Positions 53,668-63,734 are shown, counted from the stretch's first letter. The stretch is 64,000 bases of DNA from Gammaproteobacteria bacterium (GCA_965213995.1 OZ243929.1:1439236-1503235), one strand, 5' to 3'. The notes: generated by a model from the sequence alone, not told the origin. Numbers and translations: made by a program.

Positions 53668-53775
53668 TCCCCTGCCCTTTCTCCGCCCCTTTCCCGCAGG
53701 AGACGCATGACTACTTGAAGCTTGACCTGCATAGGTCAAGAACCCGTCCATGGGGCTTGGCGGCGGACGGTCGCT
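53668..53775 (-). repeat. Family-1 element, copy f (degenerate, with nested insertion)
   Basis: The left arm and the core gagacgcatga|acccgtccatggggcttggcggcgg are present. The core is split by ctacttgaagcttgacctgcataggtcaag, which contains the hairpin cttgacct/aggtcaag. No matching right arm was found. Confidence 0.6.
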
Positions 53776-53862
53776 TCCGCCTCAAGTTATGATGGCAAGC
53801 CTTATGGCGGCGGCAAGACGGGCGGGAGCAGTGGCCGGGCTGGCATCGCCCGCCTGCGGGTA

Positions 53863-54726
53863 ATGCCCATGCCTGAAGCGGGGGCCATCGAAACGCCGTC
53901 GGGCAAGGGCGCGGCGGACGAGAATTTTCCCGTTGGCTCATGGTTGCTGCCGGCGCGATTGCGGCGGCATATCGCGGCGTTTTACGCCTACGCCCGGGCC
54001 ATTGACGATATTGCCGATAATCCGCAACTTGAGCCCTCGGAGAAAATCCGCCGTCTAGAGGGTTTCGCGCAGGCGGTGAGCGGAGCGAGAACGGACGACG
54101 CGGCCTACCGCACGGCGCACGATATCCGCCGCAGCCTTGCGGAAACCGGCGTTAGCCATCGGCACTGCGTGGATTTGACCCGCGCCTTCAAGCAGGACGC
54201 GGTCAAGCGGCGCTATGCCGATTGGGGCGAATTGATGGACTACTGCAACTTCTCCGCCGCGCCCGTAGGCCGCTACCTGATTGATTTGCACCGCGAGAGC
54301 GGCAGCGCCTACGAGCCCGCCGACGCGTTGTGCAACGCCTTGCAAGTCCTCAACCATTTGCAGGATTGCGTCGACGACTACCGCCTGCTCGACCGGGCAT
54401 ATCTGCCAGGCGACTGGATGCGCGAGGCCGGCGCAAACCTCGAAATGCTTCGCGAGCCTGCTGCCCCATGCGCCTTGCGTGAAGTTTTCAATCGCTGCCT
54501 GGATGCCACTGACGCCCTGCTGCTTTCGGCCAACCAGCTGGCCGGGCGCTTGCGCGGCGCGCGCTTCGCTATGGAGTCGGCGACGATAGTGGCCATTGCC
54601 TGGAAACTCAGCGCTGAATTGCGCCGCCGCGATCCGGTCGCGGAGCGGGTGGAATTGAGCAGGATGCAATTCGCCGGCTGCGTGATGCGCGGCATCGGTC
54701 GTGTATCGCTTGGCCGAAACGGCTAG
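53863..54726 (+). CDS. hpnC: Hydroxysqualene/squalene synthase HpnC
   Basis: SGKGAADENFPVGSWLLPARLRRHIAAFYAYARAIDDIADN is the HpnC-type N-terminus (ENFPV). A second Asp-rich region, LQDCVDD, follows. Confidence 0.8.
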   Translation: MPMPEAGAIETPSGKGAADENFPVGSWLLPARLRRHIAAFYAYARAIDDIADNPQLEPSEKIRRLEGFAQAVSGARTDDAAYRTAHDIRRSLAETGVSHRHCVDLTRAFKQDAVKRRYADWGELMDYCNFSAAPVGRYLIDLHRESGSAYEPADALCNALQVLNHLQDCVDDYRLLDRAYLPGDWMREAGANLEMLREPAAPCALREVFNRCLDATDALLLSANQLAGRLRGARFAMESATIVAIAWKLSAELRRRDPVAERVELSRMQFAGCVMRGIGRVSLGRNG

Positions 54727-54740
54727 AATAATGCTTCCGG

Positions 54741-55817
54741 TTGATTTTGGAGGTAGCCCTGTTGGGGAGAACGGCTCCTGTTTTCGTGACCGGTGCAGCG
54801 GGGCATGTCGGCGCCAATCTGGTTCGCCGACTGCTCCGAGATGGCGTGAAAGTGCGCGTTCTGCTCCGGCACCAAGACAACAATGAAGGGCTCGACGGCT
54901 TGGACGTGGAGCGCGTGTTCGGTGATATCCGCGACCTTGATGCCACGCGCAAGGCGGTGGAAGGCTGTCAAGGCGTGTACCATGTCGCGGCCAAGATATC
55001 GACCATCGAGGGCAATCACGCCCATCGGCGGGAAATATTCGATTGCAACGTTGTGGGCACCCGCAATATGCTTAAGGCCGTGCGGGAGGCCGATGCCGGC
55101 CGCATGGTGGTGACCGGCTCCTTCAGCGCCGTCGGCTATGATCTTGATAATCCCTCCTCCCCGGCCAACGAATCCATGCAGTTCTATCCCATGGAGCGCA
55201 CCATGCCTTACGAGCGCAGCAAGTCGCTGGTTGAGCATGAGTGCTGGCGCGCCGCGGCAGCTGGCCAGGATGTGGTGGTGGCGACCTGTTGCGCGGTGGT
55301 GGGCGCTGCGGATTTCTTTCCCTCGAGGCTGGGGAGCGCCTTGTGCGCCTTCAGCAACCGCAAGTTGCGGGCCTACGTGGATGGAGGCTTCGAGTTTGTT
55401 GCCGCCCGCGACATCGTGGAAGGTCATGTGCTGTGCATGGAGCGCGGGCGCTCGGGTGAAAAATACATTTTCAGCAGCGAGTACAAAACGATCTCCGAAA
55501 TTCTCGATCTGTTCGAGGAGGTTTCGGGTGCGCCGCGCCCAAACCGCCGGGTTCCGGTGGGCCTGATGCTGCCGTTCTCCGAGGTGGCGAGCTTTTATCT
55601 CAGTCGCTGCCATCCGGATTTTCCGCAGCGCTTTACGCCGGGCGCCATCCGCCTGCTGCGCAAGTGCTTGCACGCCGATACTGGCAAGGCCCAGCGGGAG
55701 CTGGGCTACCGGCCCACCAGCATCCGGGAAGCGGTGCATGAAGCCTATGCGTTCCATCATCAGCGCAATGCCATTACTCATCCGCTCGCCAAGGCGCCGA
55801 GGGAGGGTCCGGCGTGA
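54741..55817 (+). CDS. NAD-dependent epimerase/dehydratase family protein (HpnA-like / 3-beta-HSD-like SDR)
   Basis: VFVTGAAGHVGANLVRRLL Rossmann motif, with an extended-SDR catalytic YERSK (YxxxK). A TTG at 54762, preceded by GGAGG, may be the true start. Confidence 0.8.
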   Translation: MILEVALLGRTAPVFVTGAAGHVGANLVRRLLRDGVKVRVLLRHQDNNEGLDGLDVERVFGDIRDLDATRKAVEGCQGVYHVAAKISTIEGNHAHRREIFDCNVVGTRNMLKAVREADAGRMVVTGSFSAVGYDLDNPSSPANESMQFYPMERTMPYERSKSLVEHECWRAAAAGQDVVVATCCAVVGAADFFPSRLGSALCAFSNRKLRAYVDGGFEFVAARDIVEGHVLCMERGRSGEKYIFSSEYKTISEILDLFEEVSGAPRPNRRVPVGLMLPFSEVASFYLSRCHPDFPQRFTPGAIRLLRKCLHADTGKAQRELGYRPTSIREAVHEAYAFHHQRNAITHPLAKAPREGPA

Positions 55818-55876: not shown

Positions 55877-56986
55877 ATGAACCAGGCACAGGTAGAGGCA
55901 CAGGCAGCGCCGCCGCCCGGCTTTTACGAGGCCGGCAATTTGCGGCAGAAGTCCCGCGCCGCCGGCATGGACCCCGACTATTGGTACGCCGTGGAGGAAG
56001 TCCGGCGGATCAAGCCGGGGACTGTGGTCGAGGTGGTGTTCTGGAAACGCTCGATCGCGCTTTATCGCGCCAAGGACGGATCTTTTCATGCCATGGAGAA
56101 TCGCTGCGCGCACCGCCAGCTCAAACTGTCCTTGGGCGTGGTGGAGGGTTGCCGGCTGGTGTGCTCCTACCACGGCTGGAAATACGACCCGGACGGAAAA
56201 CTGGCCGATACCGATCATGAGCGGATGGGCAAATTGCCCAAGGTGCAAGTCAAAACCTATCCGGTGAAAGTGCGTTACGGCCTCGTATGGCTATTTCCAG
56301 GCGATCCGGACCGGGCCGAATCGCGCCCGATTCCGGATATTCCCGAACTTGAGGGGCGCGGTCGCTGGGCCTGCGTGCCTCTCACTTTTACTTGGACCGC
56401 TCATCACTCGATGGTGATCGATAATGTGAGCGATTTCTCGCATGCTTTTCTGCACCGCCGCTACCGTCCGTTTGTGGGCGCAAAGCTGACCCGTTGCGAA
56501 ACCGTAGGCGACGATGTGCATGTGTCCTACGACACGGAGATAGGCGCCGGCCGCATTTCCAGCCGGTTTGTGGACAAGGCTAGCGTCGACACCCAGTATA
56601 TCGAGCTTTGCTACCAGTACCCGTACCAGTGGTCCAATACCGACGATGCGATCAAGCACTGGCTTTTTGTGCTGCCGATTGATGAGCGGACCACCCGCGC
56701 GTTCTTCCTGTTCTATTTCAAATCGCTGAAAATCCCCGTGGTGCCGGTGCGGATTCCACGCTTCGCCATGACTGCGGTGCTGAAGCTATCCAACCGATGG
56801 CTGATCGGCCCCTTGCTGGGTCAGGACGGATTTGCGGTTGAGGCGGAGCAGGAAGGTTACGAGCGCCACTGGGATGCCCGCCCGCTTGAGTTCAATCCGG
56901 TGGTTAGAGCCTTTCAGAACGTGACGGTGCGCAAGTGGCAGGAGCACTTGGAGCGCGAGAAAGCCAACGGGGCCGCCAGTGCCTGA
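55877..56986 (+). CDS. Rieske [2Fe-2S] non-haem-iron oxygenase
   Basis: Rieske motif CAHRQLKLSLGVVEGCRLVCSYHGW (CxH...CxxH). Candidate mononuclear-iron motif NVSDFSHAFLH. A GGAGG RBS precedes the ATG. Confidence 0.85.
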   Translation: MNQAQVEAQAAPPPGFYEAGNLRQKSRAAGMDPDYWYAVEEVRRIKPGTVVEVVFWKRSIALYRAKDGSFHAMENRCAHRQLKLSLGVVEGCRLVCSYHGWKYDPDGKLADTDHERMGKLPKVQVKTYPVKVRYGLVWLFPGDPDRAESRPIPDIPELEGRGRWACVPLTFTWTAHHSMVIDNVSDFSHAFLHRRYRPFVGAKLTRCETVGDDVHVSYDTEIGAGRISSRFVDKASVDTQYIELCYQYPYQWSNTDDAIKHWLFVLPIDERTTRAFFLFYFKSLKIPVVPVRIPRFAMTAVLKLSNRWLIGPLLGQDGFAVEAEQEGYERHWDARPLEFNPVVRAFQNVTVRKWQEHLEREKANGAASA

Positions 56987-58073
56987 ATCCCAGTTCGCGG
57001 CACCCATTCTGTCGGGCGGCATGCTGATCGATGCCGCCGCGATGGCGGGCGTTTTTCTGGTTTGGCTGTTTGTCGGATCGATGTTTCTGCCCGGCGCCCG
57101 CGTTGCCGGGGAGGATGCGGAAGGGAACCCCGTGAGCTACCGGCTCAACGGCTTGGCGCTGTACCTGCTGACCGCGCTCGCGGCCGCCGCGGCCCATCTG
57201 GGCGGATGGTTCCCGCTGTCGGTGCTCTATAGCCATTTCTTCGCCCTGTTCGCAGTGGCGAATCTGTTCGCGTTTGCGCTTTCCGGATGGCTCTATTGGC
57301 GCGGCGCGCGCAAGCGCCGGCAGCCCGGATTTTGGCGGAACTTTTTCTACGGCACCGAGCTCAATCCTTCGCTGCTGGGCGTGGATCTTAAGATGTTCAG
57401 CTATCGCCCCTCGCTGATCGGGCTGGCGCTGCTCAATGCGTCCTTCGCCGTGGTGCAATACGAAACGCACGGTCGGATTACGCTGGCGATGGCGCTCTAT
57501 CAAGCGCTTGGTTTTATTTACGTGCTCAATTATTTTCAGTTCGAGCGCGGAATGCTGCGAACTTGGGATATCGTGAGCGAACGCTTCGGATGGATGCTGG
57601 TGTGGGGCGACTACGCGCTGGTGCCGTTTTTCTACTGCATTGCCGGTTGGTGGCTGGTGGATGCCGCCGGACCAGCCATGCATCCTGTTTTCGCCGCTGG
57701 CATCGCGCTGCTTTTCGGTGTCGGCTTCTGGATATTTCGCGGCGCCAACTCGCAGAAGGATCGCTTTAAGAATGATCCCGGGGCCATGATTTGGGGCAAG
57801 CCGGCGGAATCGCTTGACGGCCGGCTGCTTGTATCGGGATTTTGGGGCATCGGGCGGCATCTCAATTACACGGGGGAGATTTGCATCTACCTGGCGTTTG
57901 CCCTCACCACCGGGTTCTCTTCCTGGGTGCCCTATCTGCTGCCCGCTTGGATAGCGAGCCTTTTGTGGCATCGCTCGCGGCGGGATGAGCGCCGCTGTCG
58001 GGCCAAGTACGGCGAGCTGTGGGCGCGCTACCGGCAGCGGGTGCCCTGCTGCATGATTCCGTTTGTGTACTAG
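56979..58073 (+). CDS. ERG4/ERG24-family sterol reductase (Delta14/Delta7/Delta24-type)
   Basis: FFYGTELNP, WDIVSERFGWMLVWGDYALVPFFY, FRGANSQKDRFK, LLVSGFWGIGRHLNYTGE and LLWHRSRRDERRCRAKYGELWARYRQRVPCCMIPFVY are family hallmarks. The GTG overlaps the Rieske gene stop by 8 nt. Confidence 0.85.
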   Translation: MPESQFAAPILSGGMLIDAAAMAGVFLVWLFVGSMFLPGARVAGEDAEGNPVSYRLNGLALYLLTALAAAAAHLGGWFPLSVLYSHFFALFAVANLFAFALSGWLYWRGARKRRQPGFWRNFFYGTELNPSLLGVDLKMFSYRPSLIGLALLNASFAVVQYETHGRITLAMALYQALGFIYVLNYFQFERGMLRTWDIVSERFGWMLVWGDYALVPFFYCIAGWWLVDAAGPAMHPVFAAGIALLFGVGFWIFRGANSQKDRFKNDPGAMIWGKPAESLDGRLLVSGFWGIGRHLNYTGEICIYLAFALTTGFSSWVPYLLPAWIASLLWHRSRRDERRCRAKYGELWARYRQRVPCCMIPFVY

Positions 58074-58149
58074 GAGCTTGCGGCCGGCCCGTGGGGCGCG
58101 AAAACCGCTTCGCCGCGACACGGCGCCGTTGGCAGTCCCGCCTGTTTAG

Positions 58150-61100
58150 ATGAAACAATCCTCAAGTATGCCGTCCTATGACATAGCCGTCGTGGGCGCC
58201 GGACCGGTAGGCAGCGTATGCGCCCTGGCCCACGCCCGCAAAGGTGCCCGGGTGGCTTTGCTGGAAGCCAATCCGCGCGCCGTGCGGCGTTTGGCCGGCG
58301 AGTGGCTGCATCCGCCCGGGGCGCGCGCGCTGCGCAATCTGGGGGTTGATCTTGATACGCAGCTGCCCAGTTGCGCGGGCAGAGGGTTTGTGGTGTTCCC
58401 GGACGATGGCGGAGAGTCCATTGTCTTCAATTATCCCGACGAAGCGCCCGGTCTGGTGTGTGAGCACGAGACGCTGGTTGGACGGCTGCGCGAGACCATC
58501 GAGCGCGAGCCGGGAATCGACTATCTGGCGCAAGCGAGGGTGCGCGAGGTGGGGGGCCGGCAGCTCGGCTACACGTTCGATGGCTCGAATCAGCGCCTGA
58601 CCGCCGGCAGAATTGTGGGAGCCGACGGTCGGATGTCGGTGGTGCGCAAATCGCTGGGCCTGTCCGCCGAGCTGATGACCAGCTCGCGGATGCTGGGCCT
58701 GGTTCTCAACGATGTGCATTTGCCGCTGGAGGGCTATGGACACCTGCTGCTGGGCGGTCCGGGCCCGATCCTCATCTACCGGGTGGCCGAGGAGCGCATC
58801 CGCCTCATTGTGGATATCCCGCTGGACCACTGGGCGCCGGGAGATCCGGTCGGCTTGCTGTTGGACGCCTATGCTCCGCTTGTGCCCGAGGAGGTTCGCG
58901 CCGCCTTTGTGCAGGCGTTGCGCTCAGGCAGGTTCAGAGCCGCGGCCAGCAGCTTGCGGCCGCGCGTCACCTACGGCAGCCCGGACCGGGTGCTGATCGG
59001 CGATGCCGCTGGACATTACCATCCGATGACAGCGATGGGGATGACCCTGGGCTTCGGCGATGCGATTGCGCTGGCCGAAAGCGCAAACTTCGAGGAGTTC
59101 TCGAACCGCCGTTTTTTGGATACGCGCGCGCCCGAGCTGCTTGCCATGGGCCTCTACGAGGTCTTCGCCGATCATCGCGACGAGGCCACGATGCTGCGCC
59201 ACGCGGTGTACCGGAACTGGCGGGCGAATGATGCCTTCCGCGAGCGAACCGTGGGCTTGTTGGCCTGCGAGGACACATCCCTTTCCAGCCTGACCTTGGC
59301 GTTCGGTGCCACGGTGCTGCGGTCGGTGGCGGGCGAGATTCCGCTTTCCTATAAAGCCAGCGTATGGCGGCGGCCTCTTGATTTGGTTCAGCGGCTTGCC
59401 GTGCGGCTCGGATGGGCGCTGGTTGGCGTGCGGGACTTGCAGAAGGCCAAGAGCGCAAACGGAAGCATGCAACCGCAGCCAAGCCATCCGCTGGCGCATG
59501 CGTTTTTAGTGTCGATGCCGGCGCGATCCGGCGCGGCGAAGTCCGTTCAATCAAAAGAGCCTGCTCCGCCCGATCCTGAAACCGCCGTTCGGCGGGCCGC
59601 AAAACGGCTAGTGGGTTTGCAGCGCGATGACGGCGCCTGGGAGGGCGAGATGGTGTGGTGCCCCATGCTCACCGCGCAATATGTGCTGCTCCATCATATC
59701 CTCGGGCGGCCGCTGGGCGATGCCCGGCGCCGCAGCGTTCTGCGCCAATTTGAGCGCAGCCGCTTTGCCCAAGGCCAATGGGGCATGCACGACCATTCGC
59801 CGCCCAATCTGTTTGTGACCACCCTGGTTTATGTTGCAGCGAGACTGCTGGGGGTTGAGCGCGACGATCCCTTGATAGAGCCGGCGCGCGCCTTCATGCA
59901 AACCGAAGGCGTTGCAAGCATTCCCAGCTGGGGGAAATTCTGGCTTGCGCTTTTGGGCCTGTACGGCTGGCGCGGGGTCAATCCCGTGCTTCCCGAACTC
60001 TGGCTGCTGCCGCGCTGGTTTCCTTTGCATCCGTCCAACTGGTACTGCCATACCCGCCTGATCTACATGGCCATGGCCGCGATCTACGCGCGGCGGTTCG
60101 TAGCGCCAGCCACGCCATTGATCGCCTCGTTGCGGGAGGAGCTGTATCCGCAGGGGTTCTCAAGCGTCAATTTCTCTGCGGCGCGCAACCTGCTTCGCCA
60201 AGGCGATCTGTTTGCCCGCCCGAGCGTTTGGCTCAGGGCCGGCTACGCCATGGCGCGCCTCTACGACCGCCTCCATATCCGTCGCCTGCGTGCCCGCTGC
60301 GTGAAATCGATCATTCCCCGGATCCGCTGGGAGCTGAACAGTTCAAGCCACACGAATATTTCCCCGGTGAGCGGAATTCTGAATATCCTCGCGTTATGGC
60401 TGCGCGACCCCAACGATTCCGATGGCCTCAAGGCGCTTGAAAAGCTGGAGGACTGGATATGGGATGACGAAGAGCACGGCGCGCGCGTGACCGGCGCCCG
60501 AAGCGCTTCCTGGGACACCGGCTTTGCGCTGCAGGCGCTGTCGGCCGCCGCCAAGGTCGAGGACACCGGGAGCGCCATGCAAAACGCTGCGGACTTCCTT
60601 GCGGCGCAACAGATCAATGTGAGCTTCGAAGGATTTCGCGAAGCCTTCCGGGCGGACCCGAAGGGCGGCTGGTGCTTTGCCGGCGGCTGGCATGGTTGGC
60701 CGGTATCCGACTGCACCGCCGAAGCGGTGCTGGGGCTTGTCGCCGCGCGCGGCGATGCGGCGGACCGCGCCGCGATCGCCAATGCCGTCGCCTTCATGCT
60801 GCGCAGCCAGAACCGCGACGGCGGTTTCGGCAGTTACGAGGCGCGCCGCTCCAGGGTTCCTCTGGAGTGGCTGAATCCTGCGGAGATGTTTGGCGAGTCG
60901 ATGACCGAGCATTCATTTGTGGAATGCACAGCATCCTGCCTCGCGGCGCTGGCCGCGGCGGGCAGGCATTTCCCGGACCTTGCCGACGACTCTGTTTCGG
61001 CAGCCGTGTCGCGGGCGGATGCGTGGCTCAGGCGCACCCAGGCCAGCGACGGGTCGTGGCGCGGAGTGTGGGGCGTGCAATTTGTTTACGGCACGTTTTT

Positions 61101-61512
61101 CGGGGTGCGGGGCCTGCTGGCTGCTGGTTGCAGCCGGACCGATCCGGCTCTGCGCCTAGCCTGCCGGTGGCTGCTGGACCGCCAGCGGGAGGATGGCGGA
61201 TGGGGCGAACACCACAGCGGCTGCTTGCCCGGCACTTACGTGGAGCATGAGGAAAGCCAGGTCATCCAAACCGCTTGGGCATTGATCGCGCTTTTAGAGG
61301 CGGGCGATTCCAACTGGGCGGCGCTTTCGCGCGGCGCCCAGTTCCTGCTGAGAACGCAGCAAGAGGATGGCGGATGGCCCAAGCAGGATATGGCGGGGGT
61401 GTTTTTCCGAACCGCGCTTCTGGACTACGTGCTCTACCGGCAGTATTTCCCTTTGCATGCGCTGGCGCTGTTCGAGCGCCGTCAGGCGCGCTTGGATACG
61501 GCAAGGTCGTGA
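58150..61512 (+). CDS. Fusion protein: squalene monooxygenase (epoxidase)-like FAD domain plus oxidosqualene cyclase
   Basis: N-terminal domain: YDIAVVGAGPVGS, GEWLHPPG (compare the SQMO motif GELLQPGG) and GDAAGHYHPMTAMGMT (compare GDAxNMRHPLTGGGMT). C-terminal domain: multiple QW repeats (QRDDGAWEGE, QNRDGGFGSYE, QASDGSWRGVWG, RQREDGGWGEH, QQEDGGWP) and the catalytic GGWHGWPVSDCTAEAV. One uninterrupted 1120-aa ORF. Confidence 0.85.
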   Translation: MKQSSSMPSYDIAVVGAGPVGSVCALAHARKGARVALLEANPRAVRRLAGEWLHPPGARALRNLGVDLDTQLPSCAGRGFVVFPDDGGESIVFNYPDEAPGLVCEHETLVGRLRETIEREPGIDYLAQARVREVGGRQLGYTFDGSNQRLTAGRIVGADGRMSVVRKSLGLSAELMTSSRMLGLVLNDVHLPLEGYGHLLLGGPGPILIYRVAEERIRLIVDIPLDHWAPGDPVGLLLDAYAPLVPEEVRAAFVQALRSGRFRAAASSLRPRVTYGSPDRVLIGDAAGHYHPMTAMGMTLGFGDAIALAESANFEEFSNRRFLDTRAPELLAMGLYEVFADHRDEATMLRHAVYRNWRANDAFRERTVGLLACEDTSLSSLTLAFGATVLRSVAGEIPLSYKASVWRRPLDLVQRLAVRLGWALVGVRDLQKAKSANGSMQPQPSHPLAHAFLVSMPARSGAAKSVQSKEPAPPDPETAVRRAAKRLVGLQRDDGAWEGEMVWCPMLTAQYVLLHHILGRPLGDARRRSVLRQFERSRFAQGQWGMHDHSPPNLFVTTLVYVAARLLGVERDDPLIEPARAFMQTEGVASIPSWGKFWLALLGLYGWRGVNPVLPELWLLPRWFPLHPSNWYCHTRLIYMAMAAIYARRFVAPATPLIASLREELYPQGFSSVNFSAARNLLRQGDLFARPSVWLRAGYAMARLYDRLHIRRLRARCVKSIIPRIRWELNSSSHTNISPVSGILNILALWLRDPNDSDGLKALEKLEDWIWDDEEHGARVTGARSASWDTGFALQALSAAAKVEDTGSAMQNAADFLAAQQINVSFEGFREAFRADPKGGWCFAGGWHGWPVSDCTAEAVLGLVAARGDAADRAAIANAVAFMLRSQNRDGGFGSYEARRSRVPLEWLNPAEMFGESMTEHSFVECTASCLAALAAAGRHFPDLADDSVSAAVSRADAWLRRTQASDGSWRGVWGVQFVYGTFFGVRGLLAAGCSRTDPALRLACRWLLDRQREDGGWGEHHSGCLPGTYVEHEESQVIQTAWALIALLEAGDSNWAALSRGAQFLLRTQQEDGGWPKQDMAGVFFRTALLDYVLYRQYFPLHALALFERRQARLDTARS

Positions 61513-61525
61513 GGGGCGCCCGAGA

Positions 61526-62269
61526 ATGATCCGCACACGGGCCCGGACAACTGCTGACCACACCCACGCCGCCGCTAGTCAGGGGGAAGGCGTTGCGGTG
61601 CCGGCGGGCGTGCTCCTGACGCTGATACTGGCCGTTTTGGCTTTGCCCGGCCTTGCGGCGCGCTATTGGGCCGACGGCCATCTGAGCTTGGTTTATTCCG
61701 TCCTCTGCGTGTTCTTTGCCGTTAACTTTCTTATCTGCTGGTGGGAAATTTGCCTCTACTTCCGCCGCGACTATATCGAAAAGCGCGCCCGCTACTGGCG
61801 GCAGCACCGAAAGGAAACTGGCCGCTCGCCGGTGCTGGATTTTGTTCTTTCCCGGGTGCCGCTCAAGCGAGCGTTTTCGCTCACTGTTTGGGCCAACGTT
61901 TGGGCCACCTACGCCGAATATGACGGCTCGTACGCGGACCGCCGCAGCTACGGGTTCAACGTCGATGTCGCCAACGGCTTCGCAACGCCGCTGCCCACAT
62001 TGGCGCTCTATGCGGCCTACGCCTTCGAGTTCATTCCGGCCCTTGCCGCAGGCATTCTTGGGGCCATGCTGTTTTGGCAATTCCTCTACATGACCTCCGC
62101 GTATCTTCTGAGCTTTGCGGTAGCGAAGCGCTATGAGCGCCTCAGCGGCCGGGAAATTTGCATCTATATTCTGGCAATGAATTCGGTATGGATACTGTGT
62201 CCGATTTTGGGCCTCTTCGTATCGATCGACCTGATCGTGAGCGGCAGCTACAGCGCCTTGGGATACTGA
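61526..62269 (+). CDS. Polytopic membrane protein, EBP/EXPERA-like (candidate sterol Delta8-Delta7 isomerase)
   Basis: About 4-5 TM segments. A by-eye match to the emopamil-binding-protein pattern: FAVNFLICWWEICLYF (EBP: FIHLVIEGWFVLYY), VWATYAEYDGSYADRRSY (EBP: LWKEYAKGDSRY) and ILAMNSVWILCPILG (EBP: VFMNALWLVLPGVL). Confidence 0.5.
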   Translation: MIRTRARTTADHTHAAASQGEGVAVPAGVLLTLILAVLALPGLAARYWADGHLSLVYSVLCVFFAVNFLICWWEICLYFRRDYIEKRARYWRQHRKETGRSPVLDFVLSRVPLKRAFSLTVWANVWATYAEYDGSYADRRSYGFNVDVANGFATPLPTLALYAAYAFEFIPALAAGILGAMLFWQFLYMTSAYLLSFAVAKRYERLSGREICIYILAMNSVWILCPILGLFVSIDLIVSGSYSALGY

Positions 62270-62447: not shown

Positions 62448-63734
62448 CTATGCCAGCGGTCGGCGGGTGGGCTGGGCCGTCTGGCGGACGATGGCTTGGG
62501 CGGCGATTTCTCCGGACCGAACTGCCGATTCGATGGTGGCAGGCAAGCCGGTGGCGGTCCAGTCACCGGCTAGGAACACATTGGCGAACGCGCTTGCGGC
62601 GCCGGGGCGCAGACGCGCTTGTTCCGGTGTTTGAACAAACGTGGCCCGCTTTTCTTTCACCACGCGGTACGGCGGAAGGCTCGCCGGATTGTCGGCCAGC
62701 GCGGCAGCGACATCGCGCCAAGTTCGCTCAGCCAGCACCGCGGCTGATTCATGCACCAGATCAGCTGCGGCGCTAATGGTGACGGAGGCCACATCGCCGC
62801 GAACAAAAAGCCATTGCGCCGTGCCTCCGATCAGTCCGATAAACGGGAGCTGTGCGGGAATATCGGCTGGTTGGGACAAACGAAAATGCACATTCACGAT
62901 GGGGCTGCTTTGCAGCGGCGCCGCGAGTCCGGGCAGCAAGCCCGCCGCGGCCTGCGGCGGAACGGCTAGCACCACCCTGTCGTCCGCGCCGAGCCGCACG
63001 CGGCGCTCGCCGAAACACAGCGCCTCCGCCCGTCCATTCGACCGCTCGATTTGAGTGAGCCGCCGCTTAAATTGCAGCTCCGCTCCTTGTGCCCGCAGCC
63101 AAGCGAGCGCCGGGTCCACAAACGCGTCGGACAGCCCCCGCGCGGCGATCAGCGGACGGCAAGCGGCCTCGCCTTTGGCGAAGGTCTCGCGCAACACCGG
63201 CCGCAGCAATTGCGCGGCGCCCTCGGTGGCCGGCATGTTCAGCGCCGCCACGGCAAGCGGTTCCCAGAAACGCTCAAATAAAACGCCGCGGCTGCCCACG
63301 CAGTCCGCGACTGTCCGGCTGGGTCCGGCGAGCATCAATGCGAGCGCCGAAAGATGGCTCCATGCCGAGGAGTCGGGCGTTCTTCTGCCGGGATGAAAAA
63401 TCCACCAGGGCACGATGCCCGAGTTGGGGCGCAGCATCCATCGCCGCCCGCCGCCCACATCGAAAAAGGGAAAGCAGGCTCTTTCCGGGCCGACCAGCGC
63501 GTTGGCGGCGGCGCCGACCAGCGAGAGGTAGCGGGCAGTCGATTGGTTGCCGCTCAGCAACAGATGATTGCCGTTATCAATGCTGCATCCGAGCCGGGCA
63601 TCGGCAAAGGAGCGGCAGCGCCCGCCGGCCCGCCCGCTTGCCTCATGCAGCACTACCGCATGCTTTTTCGCGAGCAGGGAAACGGCCGTGGAAAGCCCCG
63701 CCAGCCCGGCGCCTATGACGTGCGTTCGGGGCAA
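62448..63734 (-). CDS. hpnE: Squalene-associated FAD-dependent desaturase HpnE
   Basis: HVIGAGLAGLSTAVSL...VLHEASGRAGGRCRSF dinucleotide fold, an amine-oxidase-like body and the C-terminal FLAGDWTATGLPATIESAVRSG. It lies downstream of hpnD. Confidence 0.85.
   Translation of the reverse strand: MPRTHVIGAGLAGLSTAVSLLAKKHAVVLHEASGRAGGRCRSFADARLGCSIDNGNHLLLSGNQSTARYLSLVGAAANALVGPERACFPFFDVGGGRRWMLRPNSGIVPWWIFHPGRRTPDSSAWSHLSALALMLAGPSRTVADCVGSRGVLFERFWEPLAVAALNMPATEGAAQLLRPVLRETFAKGEAACRPLIAARGLSDAFVDPALAWLRAQGAELQFKRRLTQIERSNGRAEALCFGERRVRLGADDRVVLAVPPQAAAGLLPGLAAPLQSSPIVNVHFRLSQPADIPAQLPFIGLIGGTAQWLFVRGDVASVTISAAADLVHESAAVLAERTWRDVAAALADNPASLPPYRVVKEKRATFVQTPEQARLRPGAASAFANVFLAGDWTATGLPATIESAVRSGEIAAQAIVRQTAQPTRRPLA

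Follow-up and report, generated by a model that had tools for sequence, protein, structure and literature searches.

The fusion gene and its reading frame

The DNA analyzed here (the window) is a stretch of 64,000 nucleotides from a record named Gammaproteobacteria bacterium (GCA_965213995.1, OZ243929.1:1439236-1503235). Among its genes is an open reading frame (ORF) that starts with ATG, encodes 1120 residues followed by a stop codon without any internal stop, and joins a squalene monooxygenase (SMO, or squalene epoxidase) to an oxidosqualene cyclase (OSC) in a single predicted polypeptide (Table 1). A preliminary description of the same DNA had proposed such a fusion, and the single uninterrupted ORF on which the proposal was founded was borne out by the ORF list. 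Pfam domains were placed as follows: FAD_binding_3 at residues 10-309, SE (PF08491) at 156-393, SQHop_cyclase_N at 480-774 and SQHop_cyclase_C at 785-1108. No obvious Shine-Dalgarno sequence was seen ahead of the ATG at 58150 when positions 58120-58152 were inspected, and since homologues align from residues 4-10 of the window protein, the true start may differ by a few codons.

Table 1. Features of the window in window coordinates, with the basis of each assignment; the fusion and its parts are listed before the neighboring genes.
Feature	Coordinates	Strand	Basis
SMO-OSC fusion gene	58150..61512	+	ORF list; Pfam and NCBIfam domains; full-length homologues of 1116-1181 residues
SMO FAD-binding and substrate-binding core, residues 1-371	58150..59262	+	Pfam SE and FAD_binding_3; match to 6C6N; pocket mapping; Foldseek
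Codons of W52, H54 and F80	58303-58305, 58309-58311, 58387-58389	+	Mapping onto SQLE
SMO C-terminal helical domain, residues 372-460	59263..59529	+	Alignment with the SMO of L082; fixed length; helices in the AF2 model
Fusion junction, residues 461-474, variable, Pro/Ser-rich	59530..59571	+	Lies between the ends of the unfused SMO and OSC alignments
OSC domain, residues 475-1120, predicted lanosterol synthase	59572..61509	+	TIGR03463; TIGR01787; 1W6K; Foldseek; V852
DCTAE catalytic motif, residues 854-858	60709..60723	+	Motif search; alignment with human D455-C456-T-A-E
HpnC, hydroxysqualene/squalene synthase, first operon gene	53722..54726	+	Pfam SQS_PSY; TIGR03464, 256.6 bits (cut-off 250.45)
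SdmB-like sterol C-4 demethylation dehydrogenase	54741..55817	+	NF052578, 293 bits; best match, cut-off of 600 not reached
SdmA-like Rieske 4-methylsterol monooxygenase	55877..56986	+	NF052579, 421 bits; best match, under cut-off of 600; Pfam Rieske and VanA_C
ERG4/ERG24-family sterol reductase	56979..58073	+	Pfam PF01222, 246 bits
ORFX, 247-residue membrane protein	61526..62269	+	EBP-like fold (AF2, Foldseek)
HpnE, hydroxysqualene dehydroxylase, convergent	62448..63734	-	TIGR03467, 394.9 bits (cut-off 283)

A fused ORF of this kind could in principle be an assembly or sequencing artefact, in which a missed stop codon or a frameshift has joined two adjacent genes, and in a relative described below the unfused genes for SMO and OSC are separated by just 5 bp, so that one error could imitate the fusion. 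However, the SMO and OSC parts share one frame without an intervening stop in 81 of 81 independent related loci, which derive from independent assemblies of different projects, many of them on Mb-scale contigs. The DNA across the junction is colinear among the window and two assemblies with 95% relatedness (L001 and L081), which differ there by substitutions alone and by no indels, and the GC content at third codon positions (GC3) runs unbroken across the junction at 0.65-0.83. Moreover, the 18-residue SMO tail and the 9-residue OSC head of the unfused relative are absent from the window protein. Given the conserved frame in all 81 loci and the colinear junction DNA, the concern raised in the preliminary description about a missed stop or frameshift at ~59450-59620 can be set aside, and we regard an artefact as effectively refuted, its remaining probability being negligible. 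On the strength of these sequence comparisons, the fusion of two intact enzymes in one ORF is almost certainly genuine.

The epoxidase half

Residues 1-460 constitute a complete bacterial-type SMO, including its own C-terminal helical domain. The motif search placed the flavin adenine dinucleotide (FAD) motifs GAGPVG at residues 16-21, GADG at 157-160 and GDAAGHYHPMTAMGMT at 284-299, which complete the GR2 Rossmann set (GxGxxG, DG and GD(x)nHPxTGxGM), and GEWLHPPG at residues 50-57; every motif quoted in the preliminary description was found where it had been placed. The Pfam SE model was matched with 95.2 bits against a cut-off of 20.1, and a PDB sequence search returned human SQLE (6C6N) as the best match at 2e-27, with PqsL as the runner-up at 1e-10. 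The same order was obtained from the fold: in a Foldseek search with the full-length AlphaFold2 (AF2) model, 6C6N was matched with a target-normalized template modeling (TM) score of 0.82 over 439 columns, and PqsL, PHBH and UbiI with scores of 0.65-0.74 (UbiI, 0.65-0.66). Residue mapping onto human SQLE equated D285, P292 and M298 with the FAD contacts D408, P415 and M421, and Y210, L331, L335, F339, L371 and F385 with the pocket residues Y335, L469, L473, F477, L509 and F523. D285, P292, M298, Y210, F339 and F385 are conserved and invariant across the fused family.

In the AF2 model the C-terminal part of the SMO forms helices at residues 314-371, 379-395, 407-435 and 447-452, of which helix 407-435 is amphipathic, as judged by its hydrophobic moment, with a net charge of +5. 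By homology, residues 372-460 are a membrane-associated SMO domain, which serves to complete the pocket for squalene.

The cyclase half

The description of the C-terminal half as a complete cyclase with QW repeats also held. It matched human lanosterol synthase (1W6K) at 2e-130 over human residues 84-721 and the fold of 1W6J with a TM score of 0.78 in Foldseek, has both alpha/alpha-barrel domains (182.5 bits for SQHop_cyclase_N and 199.2 bits for SQHop_cyclase_C), and carries QW-type motifs at residues 491, 887, 964, 1012 and 1070. The acid motif is VSDCTAE at residues 852-858, in which D854 serves as the general acid for opening the epoxide; none of D854, C855 and E858 varies among 85 sequences. 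H634 and Y896, the equivalents of human H232 and Y503, are invariant in the family, as is V852, the equivalent of human V453. By far the best NCBIfam model was TIGR03463 (2,3-oxidosqualene cyclase), with 761.3 bits over residues 485-1107, and the score for TIGR01787 (511.6 bits) was well over its cut-off of 322.7. In contrast, the squalene-hopene cyclase model TIGR01507 reached only 283.7 bits against a cut-off of 431.1, and the acid motif is DCTAE rather than DxDDTA.

The junction and membrane topology

The preliminary description had placed a Pro/Ala/Ser-rich linker after about residue 440. A short Pro/Ser-rich junction is indeed present, but its span is ~461-474 (~12-14 residues; composition P 17%, S 16%), and the SMO runs to residue 460; the linker string quoted earlier, SMPARSGAAKSVQSKEPAPPDPETA, lies at residues 455-479. 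Residues 372-460 were assigned to the SMO's own tail because the SMO of the unfused relative aligns through residue 460 and because this stretch keeps its length and its motifs throughout the family. When 119 family members were aligned, residues 365-500 proved almost free of indels and to contain the conserved motifs LACED, AWRRAR, LAVRLxWLLRGV, LAxAFLxSMP and SPDAGPAL, the last two of which flank the junction, itself of essentially invariant length. A long, flexible Pro/Ala/Ser linker is thus ruled out.

We found no transmembrane-like segment in the fusion, the highest Kyte-Doolittle mean over 19 residues being 1.38, and the papers on the SQLE and OSC structures describe both parents as monotopic membrane proteins. 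We infer that the fusion is likewise monotopic, with the cyclase tethered beside the helices that line the SMO substrate pocket. A Foldseek search with the full-length model returned no PDB entry spanning both halves.

Distribution and previous reports

The database search for orthologous fusions that the preliminary description had suggested was productive. A protein search yielded more than 120 clusters (at 90% identity) of full-length fused proteins of 1116-1181 residues with 64-95% identity, and a scan of one genome per species gave at least 401 matches. GenBank labels the fused proteins "FAD-dependent monooxygenase" or "squalene--hopene cyclase". An exact-sequence look-up returned no entry for the window protein itself. 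The nearest records are a GenBank protein from a metagenome-assembled genome (MAG; JAPYNE01, MAG r_cahl1), which is 95% identical to the window protein, and ENA ERZ25067981. The record names of the best 80 loci (L001-L080 of the 401 species-representative matches) come from at least eight phyla and include Gamma- and Alphaproteobacteria, Binatia, Nitrospirales, Acidimicrobiia, Bryobacterales, Vicinamibacterales, Thermodesulfobacteriota, Opitutales and Chloroflexi. Names that refer to sponge hosts are common among the relatives (Aplysina, Rhopaloeides, Carteriospongia, Spongia, Porisulfidus, Poriferihabitaceae), and a large sponge-associated clade is 62-68% identical to the window protein. Across the same 80 loci the identities of the operon proteins were ~80% for SdmB, ~75% for SdmA, ~68% for ERG24, ~74% for CYP51 and ~57/72% for the fusion, whose SMO half was consistently less conserved than its OSC half. 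Taken with the cross-phylum "clusters of steroid genes" reported in Ircinia symbionts by Kelly et al. 2022 (Microbiome 10:164), the cross-phylum similarity observed here suggests horizontal transfer of the operon, possibly on an extensive scale, within sponge microbiomes.

When representatives at 50% identity were considered, the whole core clade formed one cluster. More distant fused clades (P0121-P0126) showed 38-50% identity in the SMO half and 50-54% in the OSC half, two others (P0132 and P0136) were 33-34% identical in the cyclase half, and unfused OSCs and SMOs turned up beside these distant clades.

The fusion architecture has been noted before and is plentiful in sequence databases. 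The sole mention that we found is by Brown et al. 2023 (Nat Commun 14:1859), who refer in a single sentence of their Methods to "fused SMO/OSC homologs" of uncultured bacteria, the N-termini of which were trimmed for phylogeny. In view of this mention and of the occurrence in at least 401 species-level genomes, the fusion is not new, and the novelty implied in the preliminary description was overstated. The fusion is not discussed in Hoshino & Gaucher 2021, in Wei et al. 2016 or in a 2025 survey of triterpenoid cyclases, and in the openly searchable literature, subscription-only papers lying outside the search, we found no description of its function, biochemistry, junction anatomy or origin. 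The window protein fits the fused type of Brown et al. 2023, in that one ORF of a bacterial sterol cluster runs from an SMO at the N-terminus to a C-terminal cyclase that begins with SQHop_cyclase_N. It shares with the fused homologs of Brown et al. and the sponge-symbiont steroid gene clusters of Kelly et al. the architecture, the habitat signal given by the many MAG names that refer to sponge hosts, and the partners SdmA, SdmB and an ERG24-type reductase, to which CYP51 and sterol methyltransferase (SMT) are often added. However, the sub-lineage of the window (the window, L001, L081, P0002 and P0003) differs from that type in lacking CYP51 and SMT beside the fusion and in having HpnC upstream and HpnE and HpnD downstream.

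Origin of the fusion

The nearest unfused arrangement was found at locus L082 (positions 6001-9440; ENA ERZ24894576, a 430-kb contig), where an operon in the order SdmB-SdmA-CYP51-SMO-OSC encodes an SMO of 477 residues and, 5 bp further on, an OSC of 666 residues. Aligned to the fusion, this SMO covers residues 10-460 and the OSC extends from residue 465/475 to residue 1112. In place of the 18-residue SMO tail, the stop codon, the 5 bp and ~9 N-terminal OSC residues of the unfused pair, the fusion has ~13 residues. The identity of the pair to the window halves (SMO 55%, OSC 72%) is on par with that of the fused proteins of the sponge clade. Because this adjacent, unfused pair stands in a related operon, the comparison indicates that the fusion very probably originated when the stop codon and the short spacer that separated neighboring SMO and OSC genes were lost, and read-through of adjacent genes is also the simplest possible origin.

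In a neighbor-joining (NJ) tree, fused and unfused OSCs interleave, and the bootstrap value for monophyly was 100% for the fused cyclases together with that of L082, as opposed to 29% for the fused cyclases alone. Given this interleaving and the nesting of the L082 cyclase, fusion and fission look labile, it being important to note that these trees were built with a simple distance correction and are too crude for counting fusion or fission events.

The sterol gene cluster

The fusion is the fifth gene of a closely spaced, co-directional set that begins with HpnC (Table 1). This setting is widely shared: among the best 80 related loci, SdmB was found in 72, SdmA in 72, an ERG24-type reductase in 70 and ORFX in 30, the order SdmB-SdmA-ERG24-P450(CYP51)-fusion is kept in ~70, and SMT is nearby in 60. 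CYP51 lies between the ERG24-type reductase and the fusion in 72 of the 80 and is absent from that position in the window and in L001; SMT was not found anywhere in the 64-kb window. The hopanoid-type squalene synthesis genes that flank the sterol cluster were confined to close relatives of the window: squalene synthase (SQS) and HpnE were matched by tblastn in L001 alone among the 80 loci. The same genes are present in the 95%-related L081, in which HpnD follows HpnE on the same strand (15602-16390). With HpnC, HpnE and, in L081, HpnD present, the cluster would provide for squalene synthesis by the HpnCDE route, epoxidation, cyclization and sterol tailoring, and from its gene content the cluster of the window lineage looks self-contained from farnesyl diphosphate to sterol.

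ORFX, which starts 13 nt past the stop codon of the fusion, encodes a multi-helix protein that had no match in Pfam or NCBIfam and that belongs to a family of ~244 residues found in the same symbiont taxa. Its AF2 model was of high confidence, with a predicted local distance difference test score (pLDDT) of 86.6 and a predicted TM score (pTM) of 0.82, and in Foldseek the human EBP structures 8W0R and 6OHT were its sole meaningful matches (probability 1.0, TM 0.5-0.58; all others TM <0.3). EBP is the sterol delta8-delta7 isomerase. On the basis of its modeled fold, ORFX is a candidate bacterial sterol C-8 isomerase.

Proposed function and alternative explanations

Neither half is truncated or has lost its cofactor or catalytic motifs, and the surrounding sterol operon also supplies squalene. 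For these reasons the window protein is likely to be a bifunctional enzyme that converts squalene via oxidosqualene to lanosterol within one polypeptide. In such an enzyme the N-terminal FAD domain would epoxidize squalene to (3S)-2,3-oxidosqualene, and in the C-terminal domain D854 of the DCTAE motif would protonate the epoxide and set off cyclization to lanosterol, which SdmA and SdmB, the ERG4/24-type reductase and the EBP-like ORFX might then modify. Like its two parents, the protein would be monotopic and attached to the membrane from the cytoplasmic side. Being fused would secure a 1:1 stoichiometry and hold the cyclase within a few nanometers of the point at which oxidosqualene leaves the SMO, and such closeness could favor proximity channeling and curb over-epoxidation to dioxidosqualene. 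Substrate channeling of the epoxide, as envisaged in the preliminary description, is plausible as a proposal.

Several observations weigh against this reading. No enzymatic data on any fused member were found in the openly searchable literature, and the 64-kb window contains no CYP51 despite its ERG24-type (C-14) reductase, so that either CYP51 is encoded elsewhere in the genome or the reductase acts on a different double bond. In the epoxidase half, the eukaryotic Tyr-Gln pair is missing, since human Y195 and Q168 align with F80 and H54; in human SQLE, loss of the Y195-Q168 hydrogen bond, including by Y195F, costs more than 90% of the activity (PMC6327030). The N-terminal domain might on this account be a catalytically dead epoxidase or, alternatively, a UbiH/aromatic-hydroxylase-type flavoprotein, given that NCBIfam has no SE model and hence lists UbiH/UbiF-type families for this region, and that JGI often labels the unfused homologues "2-polyprenyl-6-methoxyphenol hydroxylase-like". 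However, all UbiH-type scores fall far under their cut-offs (71.5 bits against 224.65 for the UbiH/UbiF/VisC/COQ6 model TIGR01988), whereas the Pfam SE score is well over its own, and SQLE clearly outscores every other match, by sequence as well as by fold. A UbiH-type domain, which the preliminary description had named as the finding that would overturn its reading, is rejected on these Pfam, NCBIfam and PDB comparisons. As for a dead epoxidase, the hydrophobic pocket is conserved, the domain is fused to or adjoins an OSC within sterol operons, and W52, H54 and F80 (human F166, Q168 and Y195) are invariant in the fused family and are the norm among bacteria: the pattern recurs in 61 of 63 SMO representatives at 50% identity (unfused, SMO-OSC and SMO-SQS), and GEWLHP is carried by 98 of 105 further SMOs, including ones with Gemmataceae, Nostoc and Calothrix names. 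Because it is common to nearly all bacterial SMOs, fused or unfused, we read the W/H/F pattern as the signature of a bacterial SMO subtype and not as a defect of the window protein, and we consider either form of this alternative highly improbable. In the cyclase half, the TIGR03463 score of 761.3 is under the curated cut-off of 851, but the unfused OSC of L082 also falls short (764.8 bits), so that the low score characterizes the clade as a whole and is not due to the fusion. The product could also be cycloartenol, parkeol or another protosteryl-derived compound in place of lanosterol. Human C449 aligns with His848, as in cycloartenol synthases (plant H477), and human T381 aligns with an Ala, where the lanosterol type would have Thr and the cycloartenol type Tyr. 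As these two positions depart from the eukaryotic lanosterol pattern, the assignment of lanosterol comes down to V453. Val852 is nevertheless invariant at this position, and all bacteria tested by Wei et al. 2016 obeyed the rule that V453 fully correlates with lanosterol and I453 with cycloartenol; a product other than lanosterol thus appears improbable.

It is less clear-cut how far the two activities are coupled. The structure prediction that the preliminary description had suggested for the interdomain arrangement recovered the SQLE and OSC folds in the two halves (mean pLDDT 72.9), but with a pTM of 0.57 and a low-confidence junction (pLDDT 30-45) no defined interdomain interface is supported. 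In addition, the nesting of an unfused pair within the fused clade shows that the fusion is dispensable, which weakens the case for obligate channeling. These same observations favor a near-neutral fusion, in which loss of a stop codon between adjacent genes that were probably already coupled in translation simply hard-wired co-expression and the domains work independently by way of the bulk membrane, without kinetic coupling: the L082 pair is as close to the window halves as are the fused sponge proteins, its cyclase groups inside the fused clade, fused and unfused OSCs are intermixed among the more distant sequences, the junction is a short and variable stretch with predicted disorder, and the SMO-SQS and SQS-cyclase fusions described below suggest that enzymes fuse easily in sterol operons. 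On the other hand, the fused state has been kept in more than 400 species-level genomes from at least eight phyla, which is more than a neutral accident predicts, the length of the junction is near-invariant and its flanks are conserved, and the NJ trees are too crude to support fusion and fission counts. On balance a near-neutral fusion is a real possibility that stops short of being probable, and kinetic channeling by the bifunctional enzyme, beyond co-localization and a 1:1 stoichiometry, is itself somewhat doubtful. A more far-reaching proposal is that the fusion is an adaptive, kinetically coupled machine, in which a fixed connector (helix 407-435, LAxAFLxSMP and the SPDAGPAL start of the cyclase) would dock the active-site entrances next to each other in the membrane leaflet for direct hand-over of oxidosqualene, so that dioxidosqualene would never form, and which as a one-gene "sterol starter" would have let the operon spread horizontally through at least eight phyla of sponge symbionts. 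We consider this rather unlikely; if true, an SQLE-OSC metabolon would for the first time have a structural template.

If active, the fused protein would lead from squalene to lanosterol by way of one ready-made gene. This matters in practice, since the lanosterol synthase of bacteria on its own is poorly soluble in Escherichia coli and sterol production in that host needed extensive tuning (PMC12146001). The fusion is also a natural test case for the benefit of physically coupling epoxidase and cyclase, with unfused relatives such as L082 as a built-in control, at a time when the metabolon question is still live for the sterol pathway of eukaryotes and the triterpenoid pathways of plants. Furthermore, the sterol operon for which it is a marker is very common across sponge microbiomes, and this bears on the question of which organisms make the "sponge" sterol biomarkers (Brown et al. 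2023; Kelly et al. 2022).

Comparison with unfused enzymes and other sterol enzyme fusions

Unfused bacterial pairs such as MCA2872/MCA2873 of Methylococcus capsulatus and that of L082 resemble the fusion in their enzyme families, in the order SMO then OSC and in their operon context. The L082 pair differs in being two polypeptides separated by a stop codon and the 5-bp spacer. The SMO and OSC of M. capsulatus jointly make lanosterol in E. coli. Human SQLE (6C6N) and lanosterol synthase (1W6K) have in common with the two halves their folds, the FAD motifs, the hydrophobic pocket and the C-terminal helical domain, as well as the DCTAE acid, the H232 and Y503 equivalents and V453. Unlike the fusion, they are separate proteins of the endoplasmic reticulum, and SQLE requires cytochrome P450 reductase. 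The bacterial SMO half has no counterpart of the eukaryotic N-terminal regulatory and membrane region, and the OSC half begins at about human residue 84. In bacterial SMOs, GEWLHP...GxGF stands where the human enzyme has F166/Q168 and Y195, and, given that the human Y195F enzyme is nearly dead, bacterial SMOs must arrange this region of the active site differently.

Other natural fusions likewise place consecutive or cooperating sterol enzymes in one polypeptide, with different partners. They include the CYP51-ferredoxin protein of M. capsulatus (Lamb et al. 2021) and, among the sequences recovered here, SMO-SQS fusions of ~1080-1190 residues (P0201, P0206, P0209 and P0220), which run from an SMO through a middle part of ~400 residues, where a weak cyclase-like piece occurs, to a squalene synthase at the C-terminus. 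The SMO-SQS type couples the SMO to the preceding step, whereas the window fusion couples it to the following one. A member of this type in a Myxococcota MAG (L083, positions 1-2425) is located near SdmB, SdmA, HMG-CoA reductase, an unfused OSC and SMT. In P0187 a squalene synthase is joined to a cyclase, and in P0186 a cyclase carries an N-terminal extension of ~400 residues with no assigned identity.

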